From Candidatus Saccharimonadota bacterium (lineage in GTDB: Bacteria; Patescibacteriota; Saccharimonadia; Saccharimonadales; Saccharimonadaceae), in NCBI GenBank assembly GCA_037141755.1, contig JBAXBX010000002.1, positions 28,915 to 92,914 of the forward strand: 64,000 bases of DNA. Direction: 5' to 3'. The first letter of the stretch is position 1. Each line of letters opens with the position of its first letter. Under the pieces are notes generated by a model. That model searched no databases, had not been told where the DNA came from, and saw only the letters and a list, made by a program, of their open reading frames with translations. A program made the position numbers and the translations under genes. This document shows, one piece after another, positions 33,764 through 41,467 of this stretch.

Positions 33764-34903
33764 ATGGGTTTATTAGTCGGAATTATTATTGGGCTTTTTA
33801 TCCTAGTATTTTTGGTTGTAGTTCATGAACTTGGGCATGCTGTTATTGCTCGTCGTAATGGTGTCGTCGTAAAAGAATTTGGTATTGGTATGCCGCCACG
33901 AGCTTGGAAGAAAAAGTTGAAAAATGGCGTACTACTCACTTTAAACTGGTTACCACTGGGTGGTTTTGTTAGCCTGAAAGGCGAGTATGATGCCGCTGAT
34001 AAACCAGGTGATTATGGGGCAGCGACTTTTTGGCAAAAAACGCGGATATTATTTGCCGGCGTAGTTGCTAACTGGATTGTGGCGGTGGTATTACTGTCAA
34101 TTTTGGCATTAACTGGTTTACCAAAAGTTTTGCCAGATCAATTTACGGTAGCGGGTGATACGACGATTATTAATCAGCCAGTTATGGTTGCTGGTTTAAC
34201 GGCTGGTCATGCAGCTGAAAAAGCGGGTATAAAAACGGGCGATACGATTATCAGTTTTGCTGGCCAGCAGGTATTAACGGCCGATCGAATGATTGAACTG
34301 TCGGGACAGAATAAAGGCACAACAGTCGAAGTCGTTTATAATCGCGCTGGTGTTGAAAAAACTATTCAAGTAACTTTGGGTACGGGTGAAAATGGTGGCT
34401 ATTTTGGAGCAAGTTTAGGTCAACGTGATTTAATCAAATCAACTTGGTCGGCGCCAATTGTTGGTGTTGCAACAACAGCGCAATTTACGTGGCTAACACT
34501 ATCCAGTTTAGGTGGTATGCTTGGTAATTTGGTAAATGGCTTGGTTGCACAATTTAATCCTGATTCGGCTGTGCGTCAGCAGGCCTCAGCTGATTTGCAA
34601 TCGGTAAGTGATGGTGTATCTGGTCCGATTGGTATTTTGGGAACGATATTTCCAGCCGCTCAGCAGGCAGGGGTGACTCAATTGGTCTTTTTGACGGCAA
34701 TAATTTCGTTGTCATTAGCGGTCATGAATATCTTGCCAATTCCAGCGCTTGACGGCGGCAGATGGTTTACGATTGTTGCTTTTAAGTTGTTTAAAAAGAA
34801 ATTAACCAAAGAGCGCGAGCAAAAAATTCAAACAGTCGGTTTTTCATTATTAATGGGGCTAACATTGTTAGTTACAATCGCTGATGTTGCAAAATTATTC
34901 TAA
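33764..34903 (+). CDS. rseP: RIP metalloprotease RseP (M50) with a PDZ domain
   Basis: HELGHAV and NILPIPALDGG. Confidence 0.85.
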   Translation: MGLLVGIIIGLFILVFLVVVHELGHAVIARRNGVVVKEFGIGMPPRAWKKKLKNGVLLTLNWLPLGGFVSLKGEYDAADKPGDYGAATFWQKTRILFAGVVANWIVAVVLLSILALTGLPKVLPDQFTVAGDTTIINQPVMVAGLTAGHAAEKAGIKTGDTIISFAGQQVLTADRMIELSGQNKGTTVEVVYNRAGVEKTIQVTLGTGENGGYFGASLGQRDLIKSTWSAPIVGVATTAQFTWLTLSSLGGMLGNLVNGLVAQFNPDSAVRQQASADLQSVSDGVSGPIGILGTIFPAAQQAGVTQLVFLTAIISLSLAVMNILPIPALDGGRWFTIVAFKLFKKKLTKEREQKIQTVGFSLLMGLTLLVTIADVAKLF

Positions 34904-35615
34904 ATTGCCAAAATTCATCAAAGCCTTAGCTTTGCCGGTATGGGTTGTTGTCAGTTTTTATATGACGCAGATAATAGTTGTTGTGGCATTAAGGTTATTA
35001 ATCGCCGTTGGTGTACCAGTGATGTCGTTGAATAGCTCTGTTTTAAATGCAACGGCGGCTGCGGCTATATATTTAATAACTTTAATAATAGTAATTGGCT
35101 TGCCTTGGTTGATTAAAAAAAGAAGTACGTCATTAAAGGATATTGGTTTAACTAGATTGCCAACCTGGACGGATATATTAATGGCACCAGCTGGTTTGAT
35201 TATTTATATATTTTTATCAGCGATTTTGATATATATTACAACTCAAATCTTGCCTGGCTTTGACATTAATCAAGCTCAAGATACTGGTTTTAGCGGCATT
35301 AATCAAAGATACGAATTGATTTTGGCCTTCATTACACTGGTTGTAGTTGCGCCGATTGCCGAAGAAGTATTATTTCGTGGCTATTTGTATGGAAAAATAA
35401 AAAAATATTTGCCAATTTGGGTTGCAATACTTTTAACAAGCGTAACTTTTGGATTTTTGCATGGCGCCTGGAATTTGGGTGTTGATACGTTTGCCTTAAG
35501 TGTTATTTTATGTTTGTTGCGTGAATCAACTGGTAATATTTGGTCGTCAATTTTGCTGCATATGGCAAAAAATGGTATCGCATTCTATTTCCTGTTTATT
35601 GTCAGTTTACATTAG
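34884..35615 (+). CDS. CPBP family intramembrane glutamic endopeptidase
   Basis: EEVLFRGYL and FGFLHG motifs in a polytopic protein. Confidence 0.75.
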   Translation: MLQNYSKLPKFIKALALPVWVVVSFYMTQIIVVVALRLLIAVGVPVMSLNSSVLNATAAAAIYLITLIIVIGLPWLIKKRSTSLKDIGLTRLPTWTDILMAPAGLIIYIFLSAILIYITTQILPGFDINQAQDTGFSGINQRYELILAFITLVVVAPIAEEVLFRGYLYGKIKKYLPIWVAILLTSVTFGFLHGAWNLGVDTFALSVILCLLRESTGNIWSSILLHMAKNGIAFYFLFIVSLH

Positions 35616-37039
35616 TAGCTTTGAGCAAATATCCATTCGGTTGATGAAGGTTCACCGGTTATAAAGTCTTTGCCGACTTTTTCTTGGTGATCAACAATCA
35701 TACAACGACTAGAAGCGGTTGTTTCTTTTTTGATTTTTTCTTCAATTTCAGAGTTGTCATTCCAGAAGACTTTTACAAATCCTTTATGAGTAGTAATGAT
35801 TGATTTGAATTCATCGTAATCAGCGGCCGAGCGAGTATTTTCGGTCAAGTTTTGTGCGCTGTTTGCTAACATGGCTGTTTGAATATCAGCCAGCCATTTG
35901 GTCGTCTCATCTAAACTATTTTCAATTGAAATTTCTCGTTCTTCTTTGTTAAAACGGGCTTTGGCGGTAACTTTTTGATTTTCGACTTCTCGGGCGCCAA
36001 TTTTGTAAATAATAGGGACGCCTTTGACTTCCCATTTATTCAATTTAAATCCAAATCGCTCGTCATCGCGTGTATCAATCTCGGTCCGTATATTGCCATT
36101 TTCCAGAGTAGTTTTTAGCTCGTTAGCGAATTTTGTTTCGGATTCTGTCATATTAACGGTAACGATGATTACTTGAATTGGGGCAAGTTTTGGTGGTAAA
36201 ACTAATCCGTCGTCATCGCCGTGTGTCAAAATTAGACCGCCGATGGAACGAGTTGATAGACCCCAGCTGGTTTGCCAGGCAAATTCGTCAACGCCGTCTT
36301 TGGTTTGGAAGGATATGTTAAATGGTTTGCTGAAATTTTGTCCTAAATTGTGTGAAGTAGCAGCTTGTAATGCTTTACCACTTGGCATTAATGCCTCGAA
36401 GGTCATAGTTTCGTCGGCGCCAGAAAAGCGTTCAGCTTTTGATTTATAGCCAATGCAGCCGTCAATTGCAAAATAGTTGTTGTAGATATTTTTATACATA
36501 TCCATGGCCCATTTTTGAGTTTCAAGGGCTTCATCTAGTGTGGAATGAGCGGTATGACCCTCTTGCCATAAAAATTCGCTAGTACGTAGGAATGGGGTAG
36601 TGCGTTTTTCCCAGCGAACGACGTTATTCCATTGGTTCATCATGATTGGTAGATCGCGCCAAGATTGGACCCAGTTGGCGTAGGCATTGTACATGATTGT
36701 TTCGCTGGTTGGTCTGACGACCAGTGGTTCTTCTAATTTTTCATTGCCAGCGATTGTAACCACGGCTAGTTCAGGTGAAAAACCTTCGATATGGCTGGCT
36801 TCTTTTTCAAGTAAGCTCATTGGAATTAATAGTGGAAAATAGGAATTACCGACACCTTTTCGTTTAATTAGTGGATTCATGGCGTTCTGGACATTTTCCC
36901 AGATAGCATAGCCATAAGGTTTGATGATAATCGAGCCTTTGGATGGGCCATAATCAGCCAGGTCGGCTAATCTAATAATTGTTGTATACCAATCGGTTGG
37001 AAATTCTTTTTTTGATGGTAAAAGTTTTTTCTTTGTCAT
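35612..37039 (-). CDS. proS: proline--tRNA ligase, archaeal/eukaryote-like type
   Basis: FPTDWYTTIIRLADL start, class II motifs, and a C-terminal domain ending in ...FAQSY. I prefer the ATG at 37039 (TATAAT 9 nt upstream). Confidence 0.85.
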   Translation of the reverse strand: MTKKKLLPSKKEFPTDWYTTIIRLADLADYGPSKGSIIIKPYGYAIWENVQNAMNPLIKRKGVGNSYFPLLIPMSLLEKEASHIEGFSPELAVVTIAGNEKLEEPLVVRPTSETIMYNAYANWVQSWRDLPIMMNQWNNVVRWEKRTTPFLRTSEFLWQEGHTAHSTLDEALETQKWAMDMYKNIYNNYFAIDGCIGYKSKAERFSGADETMTFEALMPSGKALQAATSHNLGQNFSKPFNISFQTKDGVDEFAWQTSWGLSTRSIGGLILTHGDDDGLVLPPKLAPIQVIIVTVNMTESETKFANELKTTLENGNIRTEIDTRDDERFGFKLNKWEVKGVPIIYKIGAREVENQKVTAKARFNKEEREISIENSLDETTKWLADIQTAMLANSAQNLTENTRSAADYDEFKSIITTHKGFVKVFWNDNSEIEEKIKKETTASSRCMIVDHQEKVGKDFITGEPSSTEWIFAQSY

Positions 37040-37154
37040 AATAAGATGATTATAACAGCATTTGGTCACCAATTCTGTCGCACATGATGAAAAATGACAT
37101 CGCATTTTACTTCCTCTTTATTAATACATCATTATTAACTATAATTAAGTAAAT

Positions 37155-38402
37155 ATGCGAGTTTCTAAACTATTCACCAAAACCAGTAAAAGTGTTCCAT
37201 CTGACGAAGTTGCTAAGAATGCTCAACTATTAATCAGGGCTGGATTTATTCATAAAGAGATGGCGGGTGTTTACGCATATATGCCACTTGGTTTGCGTGT
37301 GATTGAAAACATTAAGCAGATTGTTCGTGAAGAAATGAACGCTGTTGGTGGTCAAGAAGTGATGATGACGACATTGCAACCCAAGGATATTTGGGAAAAA
37401 ACTGATCGTTGGGATGATGCCAAAGTTGATAATTGGTTCAAGACCAAATTAGTTAATGGAACTGAATTAGGTGTTGGATTGACTCACGAAGAGCCAATTG
37501 TTGACGCCGCCAGTAATTATTTAAATTCGTACAAAGATTTGCCATTTGCGATGTATCAAATTCAAAGTAAGTTTCGCAATGAATTACGGGCAAAAAGCGG
37601 ACTTTTGCGTGGTCGCGAATTTTTGATGAAAGACATGTATACTTTCAGCCGTGATCAACAACAACATGAACAAGAATATGAAAAGATTGTTGCGGCCTAT
37701 TTTAGGGTTTATGAACGATTAGGCTTGGGCGGCATCACATACCGAACTTATGCTGATGGTGGTATATTTACGCCAAGATTTAGTGATGAATTTCAAACCC
37801 TAAGTGAAGTTGGCGAAGACACGATTTATATCGACGAAGCCAAAAATATCGCTGTTAATGAAGAGATCATGTCAGATGAAAATTTGGCAAAACTAGGGTT
37901 AGACCGCAGTAAATTGGTTCAAAAAAAGGGCATTGAAGTAGGTAATACTTTCCATTTGGAATCAAAATATACTGATGCGCTAGGCGTTTATTATACCGAC
38001 GAAAAAGGCGAGAAGCAGTCGATTATCATGGGCTGCTATGGTATTGGCGTCAGCCGTTTGATGGGTGTTGTGGCTGAATTATTTGCTGACGATAAAGGTT
38101 TAGTCTGGCCAGAAGCTATTGCGCCATTTAAGGTGTATTTAGTGGGTATTGGTGATGAAAAATCTATGGCCCATGCCGATGAACTATATAAAGAACTAAC
38201 CGACAAAGGTATCGAAGTATTATACGATGATCGCGTTGTTAGACCAGGCCAAAAATTTGCTGACAGCGAATTAATTGGTGTACCATACAGGGTCACTGTT
38301 AGTGATCGTATGATGGCTGATAATGTTTATGAATTTGTTGCACGCAAAAATGGTGAAAAAGAGTTATTGACACGCGAGCAACTGCTTGCTAAACTAAGCT
38401 GA
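37155..38402 (+). CDS. proS: proline--tRNA ligase, bacterial type, lacking the INS editing domain
   Basis: The N-terminus aligns with bacterial ProRS (AGFIHKEMAGVYAYMPLGLRV, THEEPI, FRNELRAKSGLLRGREFLMKD, GCYGIGVSR). At 415 aa there is no room for the ~180-aa INS domain. Confidence 0.8.
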   Translation: MRVSKLFTKTSKSVPSDEVAKNAQLLIRAGFIHKEMAGVYAYMPLGLRVIENIKQIVREEMNAVGGQEVMMTTLQPKDIWEKTDRWDDAKVDNWFKTKLVNGTELGVGLTHEEPIVDAASNYLNSYKDLPFAMYQIQSKFRNELRAKSGLLRGREFLMKDMYTFSRDQQQHEQEYEKIVAAYFRVYERLGLGGITYRTYADGGIFTPRFSDEFQTLSEVGEDTIYIDEAKNIAVNEEIMSDENLAKLGLDRSKLVQKKGIEVGNTFHLESKYTDALGVYYTDEKGEKQSIIMGCYGIGVSRLMGVVAELFADDKGLVWPEAIAPFKVYLVGIGDEKSMAHADELYKELTDKGIEVLYDDRVVRPGQKFADSELIGVPYRVTVSDRMMADNVYEFVARKNGEKELLTREQLLAKLS

Positions 38403-38492
38403 CTATAAAAGGTACTAGGTAAAATTACGCTATATATAGCGTATATTTACTTTCAAAAGACACTTTTTATATTGGAAAGAGGAATTTAAATT

Positions 38493-38948
38493 ATGAAAAA
38501 ACAATATCAAATCACTATCGAAGGTCAAAAAGAACTTGGTTTAGAGTTGACGACTTTAATTGGTCGCCGCAGTGAAGTCGCTGCCAAGATTGCTGAAGCG
38601 CGTGAATTTGGTGATTTAAGTGAGAATGCTGAATATGACGTTGCTCGTGAAGAGCAAGGCTTAGTTGAAACTCGTATTGCTGAAATTGAAGATATTTTGC
38701 AAAATTCTGAAATTATTAAGAGTGGCAGCAAATCAAAAGTCACACTAGGTAGCCAAGTTGAATTGAAACTGGGTAAAAAACAATTTGTTTACTCAATTGT
38801 TGGACCTGTCGAAGCCGATCCACTGGCTGGCAAAATCAGTAACGAATCACCAATTGGCATAGCATTATTTGGTAAAAAAGTTGGCGACACAGCCACTATC
38901 GTCACCCCAAAAGGTGAAGTGACTTACGAAATCGCCAATATTGGCTAA
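38493..38948 (+). CDS. greA: transcription elongation factor GreA
   Basis: GDLSENAEYDVAREEQ and a C-terminal FKBP-like domain. Confidence 0.9.
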   Translation: MKKQYQITIEGQKELGLELTTLIGRRSEVAAKIAEAREFGDLSENAEYDVAREEQGLVETRIAEIEDILQNSEIIKSGSKSKVTLGSQVELKLGKKQFVYSIVGPVEADPLAGKISNESPIGIALFGKKVGDTATIVTPKGEVTYEIANIG

Positions 38949-38989
38949 GAGCCGCAATAGGCCCTTTGAAAATTTGCTATACTAATAGT

Positions 38990-40754
38990 ATGAAACGATT
39001 TATTTTGGGGCTAATCGCGGTAGTTTTAGTATCGGTACTTAATATAAATCTAACTTATGCTGATACCAGTAATTTTACGATTACTGATTTTCAGGCCGAT
39101 TATTATTTGGATAAAGATTCAAGTGGCCATTCAACTTTAAAGACAGTTGAACAGATCACGGCTGATTTCCCAAACTATGACCAAAATCACGGTATCGAGC
39201 GGGCGATCATCGCTAATTACGACGGTCATACAACTAAACTAAATATCGAATCAGTCACAGACCAAAATGACAGCGAATTAAACTATTCAACCTATTGGAA
39301 TAATTCAAACTTAATCTTGCGCATTGGTGATAGCGATACTTATGTTCATGGTTTAAAAACATATGTAATTAAATATTCACAAACTGATGTGACGCGGTAT
39401 TTTGCCGATACTAATGACGATGAATTTTATTGGGACGTTAATGGCACTGGATGGAGTCAAAAATTTTATAGTGTTACAGCTAGATTACATCTAGGGGCAG
39501 GAATTACTGGGCAGGTGACAGATAGCAATGCATGTTATTATGGCCAATTTAGTTCAAACAGCAAATGTGACATTATAAAATCTGGCGATGTAATTACGGC
39601 TAATGTGACAGACCTCGGTGTTGGTGAAAACATGACGATTATATCTGGGTTCAAGCCTCATACTTTTGCTGATTATAAAATGACATTGTCCGATTTTTTG
39701 GCGATGTACTCGTTTATAATATCTGGTGCTGTCGGACTAATATTGTTGATTGTTTTAATTGTCTTAAAATTAACTCTTGGCCTTGGTGCTAAGGGGCGGG
39801 GCACGATAATTGCTGAATATTTGCCACCCAAAGGCGTCGATGTTGCGCTGTCGTCAGTTATTGAGGGCAAAGAGGCTACGTGGGTCGTCTGCGATATATA
39901 TTGATTTGGCGGTGCGACGTAACTTAAAAGTTATTCAAGCTGAAAAAAAATTATTCAATAAAGTTGGTTATAGTTTGGAATATATTAATTCTGATGGGTT
40001 GGATGATACCGAAAAAGCGATTGTCGCAGCGCTATTTGGCGATAATCCAGTTAGTGGAGCTAGATATGAAATTGATCCGAATAAATTTAACTATGAAACT
40101 TCAAAATCATTAAAAAAGTGCTACAAGGATGTTAAGTTGTTTTCCAAACAAAACGGCTATTATATTAGTGATAAAAAATTGCAAAAATTGATGATAACTC
40201 TGGTTGTAATAACAGCTTTGCAGGCGATGATTATGTGGTTGGCTTCAATGTCGTCGGAACTTGGTTTTTTGAATATTGTAACTGGGTTATTCTTTACATT
40301 AATGGGAATATTAGTAGTCGCTTCAATCAAACCGCTGTCTATAAAAGGCCGTGAATTGCATGATTATTTAAAAGGTTTGCAGGTGTATATTAAATGCGCT
40401 GAGGCTGATCGTATTAAGATACTGCAAAGTCCGATGGGCGCTGAAAAAACACCAGTCAATACTAATGACACTGATATGATGATTCATTTATACGAAAGGG
40501 TATTGCCCTATGCAGTGTTGTTTGGAATTGAAAAAGAATGGACTAAAGTGCTGGGTGAATATTACGAACAGCAGAATGTGACCCCTGGTTGGTATGTTGG
40601 CAATAATGCCTTTAATATGGCGGCCTTTAGCTCGTCGATGTCTAGCTTTTCGGGTAGCGTATCCAGTAGCAGCTATAGTTCGTCCAGTGGCGGCTCGGGT
40701 GGCGGTGGATTTTCGGGTGGCGGTGGTGGCGGCGGAGGCGGCGGCGGCTGGTAG
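38990..40754 (+). pseudogene. DUF2207 family membrane protein interrupted by a +1 frameshift
   Basis: ORFs 38966-39904 and 39810-40754 overlap in different frames. The family motif SSAIYIDLAVRR is read only in the second frame. There is a C-terminal Gly-rich tail. Removing one G near 39882-39884 restores a single ORF. Confidence 0.7.
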
Positions 40755-40783
40755 TTAACACCTTTAAAGAGTATAATAGATAC

Positions 40784-41467
40784 ATGATAGAGGTGAAAAA
40801 AATATCGAAGACTTACGGCAAGGGCGACAACGCTTTTAAGGTCTTGAAAAACATAAATTTTACAATTCCAGATGGTGCTAGTGTGGCGATTTTGGGCAAA
40901 TCAGGCAGTGGTAAATCAACCTTGATGCATGTTATGAGCGGTCTTGATCGACCGGATAGTGGTGAAATTATTATAGATGGCAAAGATATATTAAAACTTA
41001 GCCAAAAAGATGTCGACAAATTTCGCTCGACCAAGATGAGCTTTATTTTTCAAAGCTTTTTCGTTCAAGCTAACGAAAGTTGTTATGACAATGTCAGTTT
41101 GCCACTTGAAATTGCTGACTTATCGGCTGGTAGACGTCGATCGAAAATTGAAACGGCTTTAACTGCAGTTGACTTGGCTGATAAAATAAAATCACGGGCC
41201 AGGGATTTGTCTGGTGGCCAAAAGCAACGTTTGGCAGTCGCTAGAGCGATTGTTAATAGTCCACAAATTTTGTTTGCCGATGAACCAACTGGAAATCTAG
41301 ACAGTGTGACTGGTGGTAAGGTTGAAAGTTTGTTGTTTAATTATAATAAAAAGAACAAAATCACATTGATTGTTGTAACGCATGATCCAGAATTAGCGGC
41401 CCGATGTGATATCCAAATTCATATCAAAGATGGCAAGATTGATTCAATCAAGGAGATGAAAAAATGA
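40784..41467 (+). CDS. ABC transporter ATP-binding protein (MacB/LolD-like)
   Basis: GKSGSGKST, LSGGQKQR and LFADEPTGNLD. Confidence 0.9.
   Translation: MIEVKKISKTYGKGDNAFKVLKNINFTIPDGASVAILGKSGSGKSTLMHVMSGLDRPDSGEIIIDGKDILKLSQKDVDKFRSTKMSFIFQSFFVQANESCYDNVSLPLEIADLSAGRRRSKIETALTAVDLADKIKSRARDLSGGQKQRLAVARAIVNSPQILFADEPTGNLDSVTGGKVESLLFNYNKKNKITLIVVTHDPELAARCDIQIHIKDGKIDSIKEMKK

Follow-up and report, generated by a model that had tools for sequence, protein, structure and literature searches.

The 64,000-nucleotide window of DNA analyzed here (G000:C2:28915-92914) stems from a freshwater member of the Saccharibacteria (Saccharimonadales) and carries two genes for prolyl-tRNA synthetase (ProRS) that belong to different evolutionary types. 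ProRS-A is of the archaeal/eukaryote type (E-type) and ProRS-B of the bacterial type (P-type); their genes are divergent neighbors separated by only 115 bp. The pair is most probably a preserved, selectively maintained intermediate of an in-situ xenologous displacement of proS, in which a laterally acquired A gene has taken up position next to the resident B gene. A displacement caught midway is the main explanation because the two genes share one slot in a conserved gene cluster and because a scar of B is present in sister lineages that possess only A. The source genome (hereafter G000) is an assembly of 917,701 bp in 14 contigs with the character of a metagenome-assembled genome (MAG), is 99% complete, and has its close relatives among MAGs from stratified lakes.

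Two intact prolyl-tRNA synthetases and a single tRNAPro

The features of the locus, in coordinates of the window and with the evidence for each, are as follows.

33764-34903, plus strand: rseP, encoding a site-2 protease (Peptidase_M50), the conserved left flank of the proS slot (open reading frame [ORF], Pfam on orthologous contigs, synteny)
34884-35615, plus strand: gene of a CAAX/Rce1-like protease (ORF, synteny)
35612-37039, minus strand: ProRS-A, 475 aa, C-terminal Tyr (TIGR00408, PF09180, match to 1H4Q)
37040-37154, no strand: divergent control region of 115 bp (sequence)
37155-38402, plus strand: ProRS-B, 415 aa, without INS domain, the resident gene of the slot (TIGR00409, matches to PDB 5UCM and 2I4L, orthologs)
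38367-38395, plus strand: promoter-like site TTGACA-17 nt-TAAACT with a preceding TG, in the last 12 codons of proS-B (best site in scan)
38493-38948, plus strand: greA, the conserved right flank of the slot (ORF, synteny)

An earlier note on this DNA, made from the letters alone, had recognized two ProRS of different evolutionary types that are transcribed divergently from a 115-bp gap; the family assignments and the coordinates agree with that description. ProRS-A passes the equivalog model TIGR00408 (proS_fam_I) with 519.6 bits against a cut-off of 437, over residues 10-475 of 475. ProRS-B passes the equivalog model TIGR00409 (proS_fam_II) with 415 bits against a cut-off of 306.7, in a match that is split into two stretches because the INS domain is missing.

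The minus-strand gene had been described as archaeal/eukaryote-like, with a C-terminal extension ending in Tyr. Its product indeed matches tRNA-synt_2b (PF00587), HGTP_anticodon (PF03129), and ProRS-C_1 (PF09180, residues 408-475), has no INS, and terminates in ...FAQSY. The best match in PDB is the ProRS of Thermus thermophilus (1H4Q; 449 bits, full length). In an alignment with 69 diverse E-type homologs, which span Melainabacteria, Actinomycetota, Nitrososphaerota, and Patescibacteria, ProRS-A agrees with the family in each of the 113 columns conserved to 90% or more. Its motif 2 loop (RTT) resembles the bacterial-adapted loops of other E-type enzymes (RTR in Thermus, TTR in ProRS2 of Bacillus thuringiensis) and is unlike the FKHPQ of eukaryotes.

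The bacterial type attributed to the plus-strand gene over motifs 1-3 and the anticodon-binding domain is likewise supported, both by the TIGR00409 score and by Pfam matches to tRNA-synt_2b and HGTP_anticodon. ProRS-B retains every one of the 60 positions conserved to 90% or more among 138 representatives of P-type ProRS (the median representative misses two), including R141, E143, R145, R152, R154, E155, F156, G293-G298, and R301. Motifs 1-3 are thereby covered, as is the Arg of the motif 2 loop, which in P-type ProRS reads G72 (PMC11229370). The score of ProRS-B stays under the cut-offs of two further models, NF006625 (454 vs. 558) and the "exception" model for INS-less enzymes, NF008979 (400 vs. 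550).

The INS (YbaK-like) domain, an editing module of about 180 aa that separates motif 2 from motif 3, is typical of P-type ProRS but not universal. Residues 1-237 and 252-411 of ProRS-B align to residues 9-242 and 407-570 of the Pseudomonas aeruginosa enzyme, which leaves a linker of approximately 15 aa (residues 238 to 252) where the latter has an INS of about 165 aa (243-406); the "about 60 aa" given for this position in the earlier note is an overestimate. With the ProRS of Rhodopseudomonas palustris, the aligned stretches are 1-238 and 254-414 (to 21-256 and 295-457). The suggested inspection of active-site residues found nothing missing in either enzyme, and a pseudo-enzyme, or a placement of the 415-aa protein in another class IIa family, is rejected on the equivalog scores together with the complete sets of conserved columns.

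A single tRNAPro(UGG) was found in G000 by Aragorn (C1:44032-44107). It carries C1:G72 and A73, the bacterial identity set according to the identity rules for tRNAPro (PMC11229370). Neither a second type of tRNAPro nor an unassigned or odd tRNA is listed among the 38 tRNAs of the genome, of which only the tRNAPro was inspected at the sequence level. A pair of tRNAPro kinds matched to the pair of enzymes is not borne out by this result; both synthetases presumably charge the same bacterial-type tRNAPro(UGG).

Neither enzyme has a domain for editing in cis, as had been noted before, both being INS-less. The proposed genome search for ProXp-ala/YbaK yielded no match to the YbaK/INS domain (PF04073) anywhere in G000, which speaks against a trans-editing factor of this family as a replacement for the missing INS. 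While the lack of an editing domain stands, its supposed connection to the gene pair does not: of 41 genomes from the order, 39 are devoid of PF04073, so that the absence of known editing of Ala-tRNAPro and Cys-tRNAPro is a clade-wide trait and unrelated to the possession of two ProRS genes. The exceptions are G028, whose ProRS-B still includes an INS/YbaK-like domain (567-aa frame; G028:C21:6694-8385), and G009, which has a free-standing YbaK-like ORF of 104 aa (G009:C15:22969-23232).

Each proS gene is preceded by a TATAAT placed 9 nt before its own ATG (37054-37049 on the minus strand for A; 37140-37145 on the plus strand for B), in agreement with the earlier note, and a Shine-Dalgarno sequence is absent ahead of both, so that their mRNAs are probably leaderless or nearly so; greA has an AAGAGGA. 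The start of ProRS-A at ATG 37039 is supported by its homologs; gene callers begin at ATG 37105 (497 aa) in an ORF that extends over 35612-37105 on the minus strand. At its other end, the gene is convergent with that of the CAAX protease, and their 3' ends overlap by 4 nt. A scan of positions 35000-39200 for regulatory RNAs (T-box, riboswitch, or other) returned none at E <= 1 and no match to Rfam.

The proS slot in related lineages

The slot occupied by the pair is part of a cluster with the conserved order uppS, rseP, CAAX protease gene, [proS], greA, which continues with lysS in the relatives. Among 40 sampled relatives, 35 have only a B-type ProRS, an ortholog located in this slot, and five only an A-type ProRS; both types are present in G000 alone. 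In B-only genomes, B lies on the same strand directly after the CAAX gene, whose stop codon is located 1 nt before the ATG of B (L132, L133), and the arrangement rseP-CAAX-[B]-greA is found also in G018, G006, G019, G008, and G036. G018, L132, and L133 each have a single ProRS, which shares 84-87% identity with ProRS-B. For ProRS-A, the identity is 93% to the single ProRS of each of two A-only relatives, G022 and G024, in which the slot is filled by an inverted A without any B; the identities to the remaining A-only relatives are lower (G035, 66%; G038, 63%; G023, 43%). In many other Saccharibacteria, the slot contains a co-oriented A (rseP-CAAX-[A]-greA).

Genomes with an inverted A and no functional B (L031, L032, L033, and the more distant L121) retain a remnant of the lost gene. 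The last ~11 codons of B (~35 nt) are left before greA and encode the peptide LT..QLLAKLS* (LTRHKLLAKLG* in L121). The scar in L031, L032, and L033 reads ...TTGACAC ATAAT CAACTGCTTGCTAAACTAAGCTGA, and the corresponding 3' end of an intact B reads ...TTGACAC GCGAG CAACTGCTTGCTAAACTAAGCTGA. A longer relic, comprising 73 aa of the C-terminus of B, sits between the A gene and greA in L034.

The scar coincides with the promoter-like site at 38367-38395, which scores highest in the region and is retained in L031, L032, L033, and L121. The same motif at the end of proS-B (TTGACA-17-TAAACT) is conserved at the nucleotide level in B-only genomes. Judging from the sequence, the promoter of greA would lie within the 3' end of proS-B, which would explain the survival of precisely this fragment. 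Between the stop codon of proS-B and greA there is also a perfect 18-nt palindrome, TACGCTATATATAGCGTA (38426-38443), which is kept in A+B, A-only, and most of the examined B-only relatives and may serve as an operator or form a hairpin in the greA leader.

The divergent pair is not confined to G000. An A(-)/B(+) pair was assembled independently in at least three contigs from other samples (L111, L112, L116), and shorter contigs also show the 5' end of A upstream of B. The B-type proteins of L111/L112 and L116 are 98% identical to ProRS-B, and the gene order rseP-CAAX-A(-)-B(+)-greA matches that of G000. These A+B contigs represent at least two species-level lineages different from G000, as the synonymous divergence (dS) of rseP amounts to ~1.0-1.1. 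The intergenic region between A and B is nevertheless ~95% identical in L111 and L116, despite the saturation of synonymous sites in A.

One of these contigs has a close counterpart that lacks B. Comparison of L116 (A+B) with L031 (bin-329, A only) gives a dS of 0.084 for rseP and 0.107 for greA; their ProRS-A proteins are identical (dS 0.045). Relative to L116, 96 nt of the intergenic region and 1210 nt of B have been replaced in L031 by 134 nt of unrelated filler. Judged by these values, the two are nearly conspecific, so that the presence of B is polymorphic even between very close relatives.

In a larger sample of 401 genomes of the family, A is present in 19 genomes and in 10 of 95 genera; 15 of the 19 are without B. 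Three other genomes (G431, G079, G242) combine a B in the usual slot with an A gene at a locus unrelated to it, which indicates that the double state arises repeatedly, in about 1% of species. A different kind of ProRS doubling is encountered in some Saccharibacteria that carry tandem pairs of archaeal-type ProRS with 34-36% mutual identity (L043 2535-5419; G416:C1:480449-483330; G314:C6:28795-31622), one example being a Candidatus Microsaccharimonas MAG.

Substitution patterns among the three A+B lineages (G000, L111, L116; Nei-Gojobori method) point to strong purifying selection on both proS genes. The ratio of nonsynonymous to synonymous divergence (dN/dS) is ~0.035 for ProRS-A at a dS of 0.96-1.3 and 0.017-0.028 for ProRS-B at a dS of 0.40-0.60, values as low as or lower than those of rseP (0.05-0.10) and greA (0.03-0.05). 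The synonymous divergence among these lineages changes stepwise along positions 33764-41467: it is low in proS-B and greA (0.3-0.6), reaches 0.7 in lysS, and is high beside this tract, both in rseP, the CAAX gene, and proS-A (1.0-1.7) and in the DUF2207 gene and an ATP-binding cassette (ABC) gene (1.3-1.7); the exception is the ABC gene of L116 vs. G000, with only 0.35. This step suggests a mosaic history of recombination, although codon bias could also account for the low dS in the B-greA tract, and it leaves room for a short as well as a long co-residence of the two proS genes.

A further synthetase differs between G000 and its relatives in the same neighborhood. In L111, L116, G022, G024, L121, and L132, greA is followed by a gene for a class II lysyl-tRNA synthetase (LysRS). 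In G000, greA is followed after 17 bp (38948-38966) by a DUF2207 gene, with no lysS there, and a search of the whole genome revealed no class II LysRS. Its place is taken by a class I LysRS encoded outside the window (G000:C2:180085-181602; TIGR00467, 380 bits), which is absent from the five relatives tested. LysRS is a second case of a replacement of synthetase types, in this instance completed, two genes away from the proS pair. The DUF2207 gene of G000 is split into overlapping ORFs (38966-39904 and 39810-40754, together 38966-40754); it is a single gene of 587-604 aa in L111 and L116, and tblastn returns two high-scoring segment pairs in different frames.

A probable displacement and alternative explanations

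The gene arrangements in G000 and its relatives can be placed in a coherent sequence. The ancestral state would have been an INS-less P-type proS (B) directly behind the CAAX gene in the cluster uppS-rseP-CAAX-proS-greA. An A gene of the kind that circulates in Saccharibacteria and other Patescibacteria would then have entered by lateral transfer and come to lie, inverted, between the CAAX gene and the resident gene, an event that would have separated B from its upstream operon and created the divergent promoter region of 115 bp. Both enzymes, catalytically intact by sequence and presumably expressed and active, would have charged the single tRNAPro(UGG). In sister lineages, B would later have been deleted down to the greA promoter, leaving ~35 nt and completing the displacement, so that insertion of A would have come first and loss of B later. 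Elsewhere, namely in G000 and two or more further lineages of species rank, both genes would persist, each held by strong purifying selection, which implies that the redundancy is not neutral and that A and B are not interchangeable in these lineages. By analogy with Bacillus thuringiensis, candidate reasons for keeping both enzymes are dose, stress tolerance, inhibitor sensitivity, or fidelity.

The most likely donor of A is another Saccharibacterium, because A nests in a clade of Saccharibacteria and other Patescibacteria; its distribution in the family is patchy. A tree of 94 E-type ProRS places the copy of G000 with relatives of 92-94% identity, followed by P0002 (83%) and P0003/P0005 (72%); all these sequences fall within a well-supported clade of Saccharibacteria (SH-like approximate likelihood ratio test [SH-aLRT], 99), whose sister group consists of other Patescibacteria. 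In P0002 and P0003, an inverted A adjoins greA, and B is missing.

Several observations weigh against a simple, one-way course of the displacement. By the similarity of their flanking genes (greA, lysS, ABC), the B-only lineages (76-85% to the G000 clade) appear to lie between the G000 clade and the scar-bearing P0003 lineage with its inverted A (68-79%), which means that either the cassette passed from one lineage to another or recombination brought B back. Probably, the inverted-A cassette was transferred between lineages into the same slot, presumably via recombination in the conserved flanks. Moreover, one-way replacement leaves unexplained why B is under strong selection and yet rapidly lost in a near-conspecific, and the low dS of the B-greA tract could reflect a recent recombinational spread and not a continuous co-residence of the two genes. 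Nor is a single deletion shared by all A-only genomes established: L031, L032, and L033 have the right deletion boundary and the ATAAT substitution in common, but their fillers differ, and L031 is otherwise almost identical to L116, which has both genes. Possibly, one deletion allele was spread by recombination, or B was deleted more than once within limits set by the promoter. Selection that preserves the greA promoter could have fixed the same boundary each time.

Some of these points would be accommodated if A+B were a selected, recombining polymorphism, in which the B-greA tract is repeatedly re-spread or lost by homologous recombination. We regard this as rather unlikely, but if true, it would jointly account for the strong selection on B, the lower dS, and the deletion in a near-conspecific. 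The two ProRS types would then be distinguished by a trait that is of consequence only in certain hosts or lakes of these epibiotic, ultra-small bacteria, such as the sensitivity to natural ProRS inhibitors, stability under stress, or fidelity in the absence of Ala/Cys-tRNAPro editing. A stable functional specialization of the two enzymes, with A+B and A-only alleles as a selected polymorphism, is a related idea that we consider possible but not probable; it overlaps with a displacement caught midway in that it concerns the reason why both genes were kept and not their origin. One enzyme might, for example, tolerate stress or an inhibitor released by hosts or neighbors, and the other might serve as the faster or more accurate housekeeping enzyme. 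Inhibitor resistance, which had already been raised in the earlier note, and condition-specific roles are possible.

Specialization is in line with a dN/dS of <=0.04 for both genes across species-level divergence, with the conservation of the A-B intergenic region (~95%), and with the recurrence of A+B in three other species of the family that have A at other loci. There is also a precedent in B. thuringiensis, where P-type and E-type ProRS are both expressed and active and differ in their tolerance of stress and halofuginone (PMC11229370). By contrast, the loss of B in the near-conspecific L031 (vs. L116) and in several sister lineages indicates that B is dispensable at least under some conditions. 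Of the 19 genomes of the family found to carry A, 15 manage without B, and the scan of the region revealed neither a regulatory RNA nor a differential regulator.

The dispensability of B elsewhere could also be taken to mean that the redundancy is neutral and short-lived and that B, devoid of any selective value, merely awaits deletion; after all, B is gone from sister lineages, and A alone suffices in G022 and G024. This explanation is strongly disfavored and has little probability, because a neutral gene of 1.25 kb would gather replacements and disruptions of its frame, whereas B is intact in three lineages at a dS of 0.4-0.6, with a dN/dS of 0.017-0.028, 98% amino acid identity, and the full set of 60 family-conserved residues. 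Even less credence is given to a neofunctionalized or pseudo-enzymatic copy that serves another tRNA (as does ProRSx), has an altered amino acid specificity, or fulfills a non-translational role. Such paralogs do exist, for instance, the ProRSx associated with tRNAProA in Streptomyces (PMC9437257); some close homologs of B are labeled merely as "aminoacyl-tRNA ligase-related" by NCBI, and B remains under the cut-offs of NF006625 and NF008979. However, the conserved residues are complete in both A and B, the score of B exceeds the equivalog cut-off of TIGR00409, and each copy has an ortholog, at 84-93% identity, that is the only ProRS of its genome, which makes the neofunctionalization suggested in the earlier note improbable; furthermore, there is one tRNAPro and no odd tRNA among the 38 listed (only the sequence of tRNAPro was inspected). 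A chimera of two strains with one ProRS type each, generated during assembly or binning, might be suspected in a MAG-like assembly of 14 contigs, particularly as both alleles occur in related lake populations. Its probability is negligible: A and B are adjacent on one contig, and the identical arrangement was recovered from several samples with different assemblers (L111, L112, L116, and shorter contigs), independent assemblies that exclude an artifact of this kind.

Significance and relation to known systems

The replacement of essential translation genes has been inferred across the tree of life, but the two-gene intermediate is rarely seen. Within one genus-level clade, the proS slot offers a graded series that consists of the resident gene only, both genes, the newcomer with a scar, and the newcomer only. 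The mechanistic detail added by this series is that the surviving piece of the old gene is the piece that would bear the promoter of the downstream gene. The pair also indicates that a genome as small as 0.9 Mb can retain a second synthetase for the same amino acid, with strong selection acting on both. Since neither of them has known editing against Ala-tRNAPro or Cys-tRNAPro, the pair would provide a convenient system for studying differences between P-type and E-type ProRS in vivo.

Both the coexistence of two ProRS types and in-situ displacement are already known, and the locus is a clean example of them that introduces no new principle; what makes it valuable is how complete the natural series is, together with the scar and its likely promoter. 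In the literature searched, no paper combines ProRS and Saccharibacteria. ProRS is among the synthetases whose two types have a patchy distribution in bacteria, and both the in-situ xenologous displacement of genes and the horizontal replacement of aminoacyl-tRNA synthetases are classical concepts, reportedly described by Omelchenko et al. (2003, Genome Biol), Wolf et al. (1999), and Woese et al. (2000). As in those cases, an essential gene in a conserved cluster would have been exchanged at the same position for a distant functional equivalent. Unlike the usual cases, in which only end states are visible, the proS slot displays a two-gene intermediate, scars, and a polymorphism in presence and absence between near-conspecifics.

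Individually, the two enzymes have counterparts in structurally characterized ProRS. ProRS-B resembles the P-type enzyme of R. palustris (PDB 2I4L), which also lacks the INS and is composed of a catalytic domain, a short linker, and a C-terminal anticodon-binding domain, but the linker is shorter (~15 aa vs. ~38 aa), and the NF008979 model is not reached. Alphaproteobacteria with an INS-less ProRS are known to carry free-standing ProXp/YbaK editing proteins; unlike them, G000 is without a YbaK-type protein in the genome search for PF04073. ProRS-A shares with the ProRS of T. thermophilus (1H4Q), an E-type enzyme that acts on bacterial tRNAPro, a C-terminal domain ending in Tyr and a motif 2 loop adapted to bacteria; by contrast, the four zinc-binding cysteines in the C-terminal domain of the Thermus enzyme do not appear in the alignment of ProRS-A.

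The closest parallel to the pair as a whole is found in Bacillus. An E-type ProRS is used by ~22% of bacteria (PMC11229370), and the coexistence of P-type and E-type ProRS has been documented and characterized for most Bacillus, B. thuringiensis among them (Ivanesthi et al., NAR 2024, PMC11229370). As in the B. thuringiensis/B. cereus group, with ProRS1 (P-type) and ProRS2 (E-type), both types occur in one bacterium, all tRNAPro are of the bacterial kind (G72/A73), and the motif 2 loop of the E-type enzyme is non-eukaryotic (TTR in Bacillus, RTT in ProRS-A). Unlike in B. thuringiensis, where the P-type enzyme has an INS, ProRS-B has none, and there is no factor of the YbaK family. Expression and activity of both enzymes have been shown in B. 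thuringiensis, whereas the pair in G000 is known from its sequence. The Bacillus genes are non-adjacent and reside in a large genome; those of G000 are divergent neighbors in a genome of ~0.9 Mb, and among its relatives there are some in which the replacement has run to completion at this very position.

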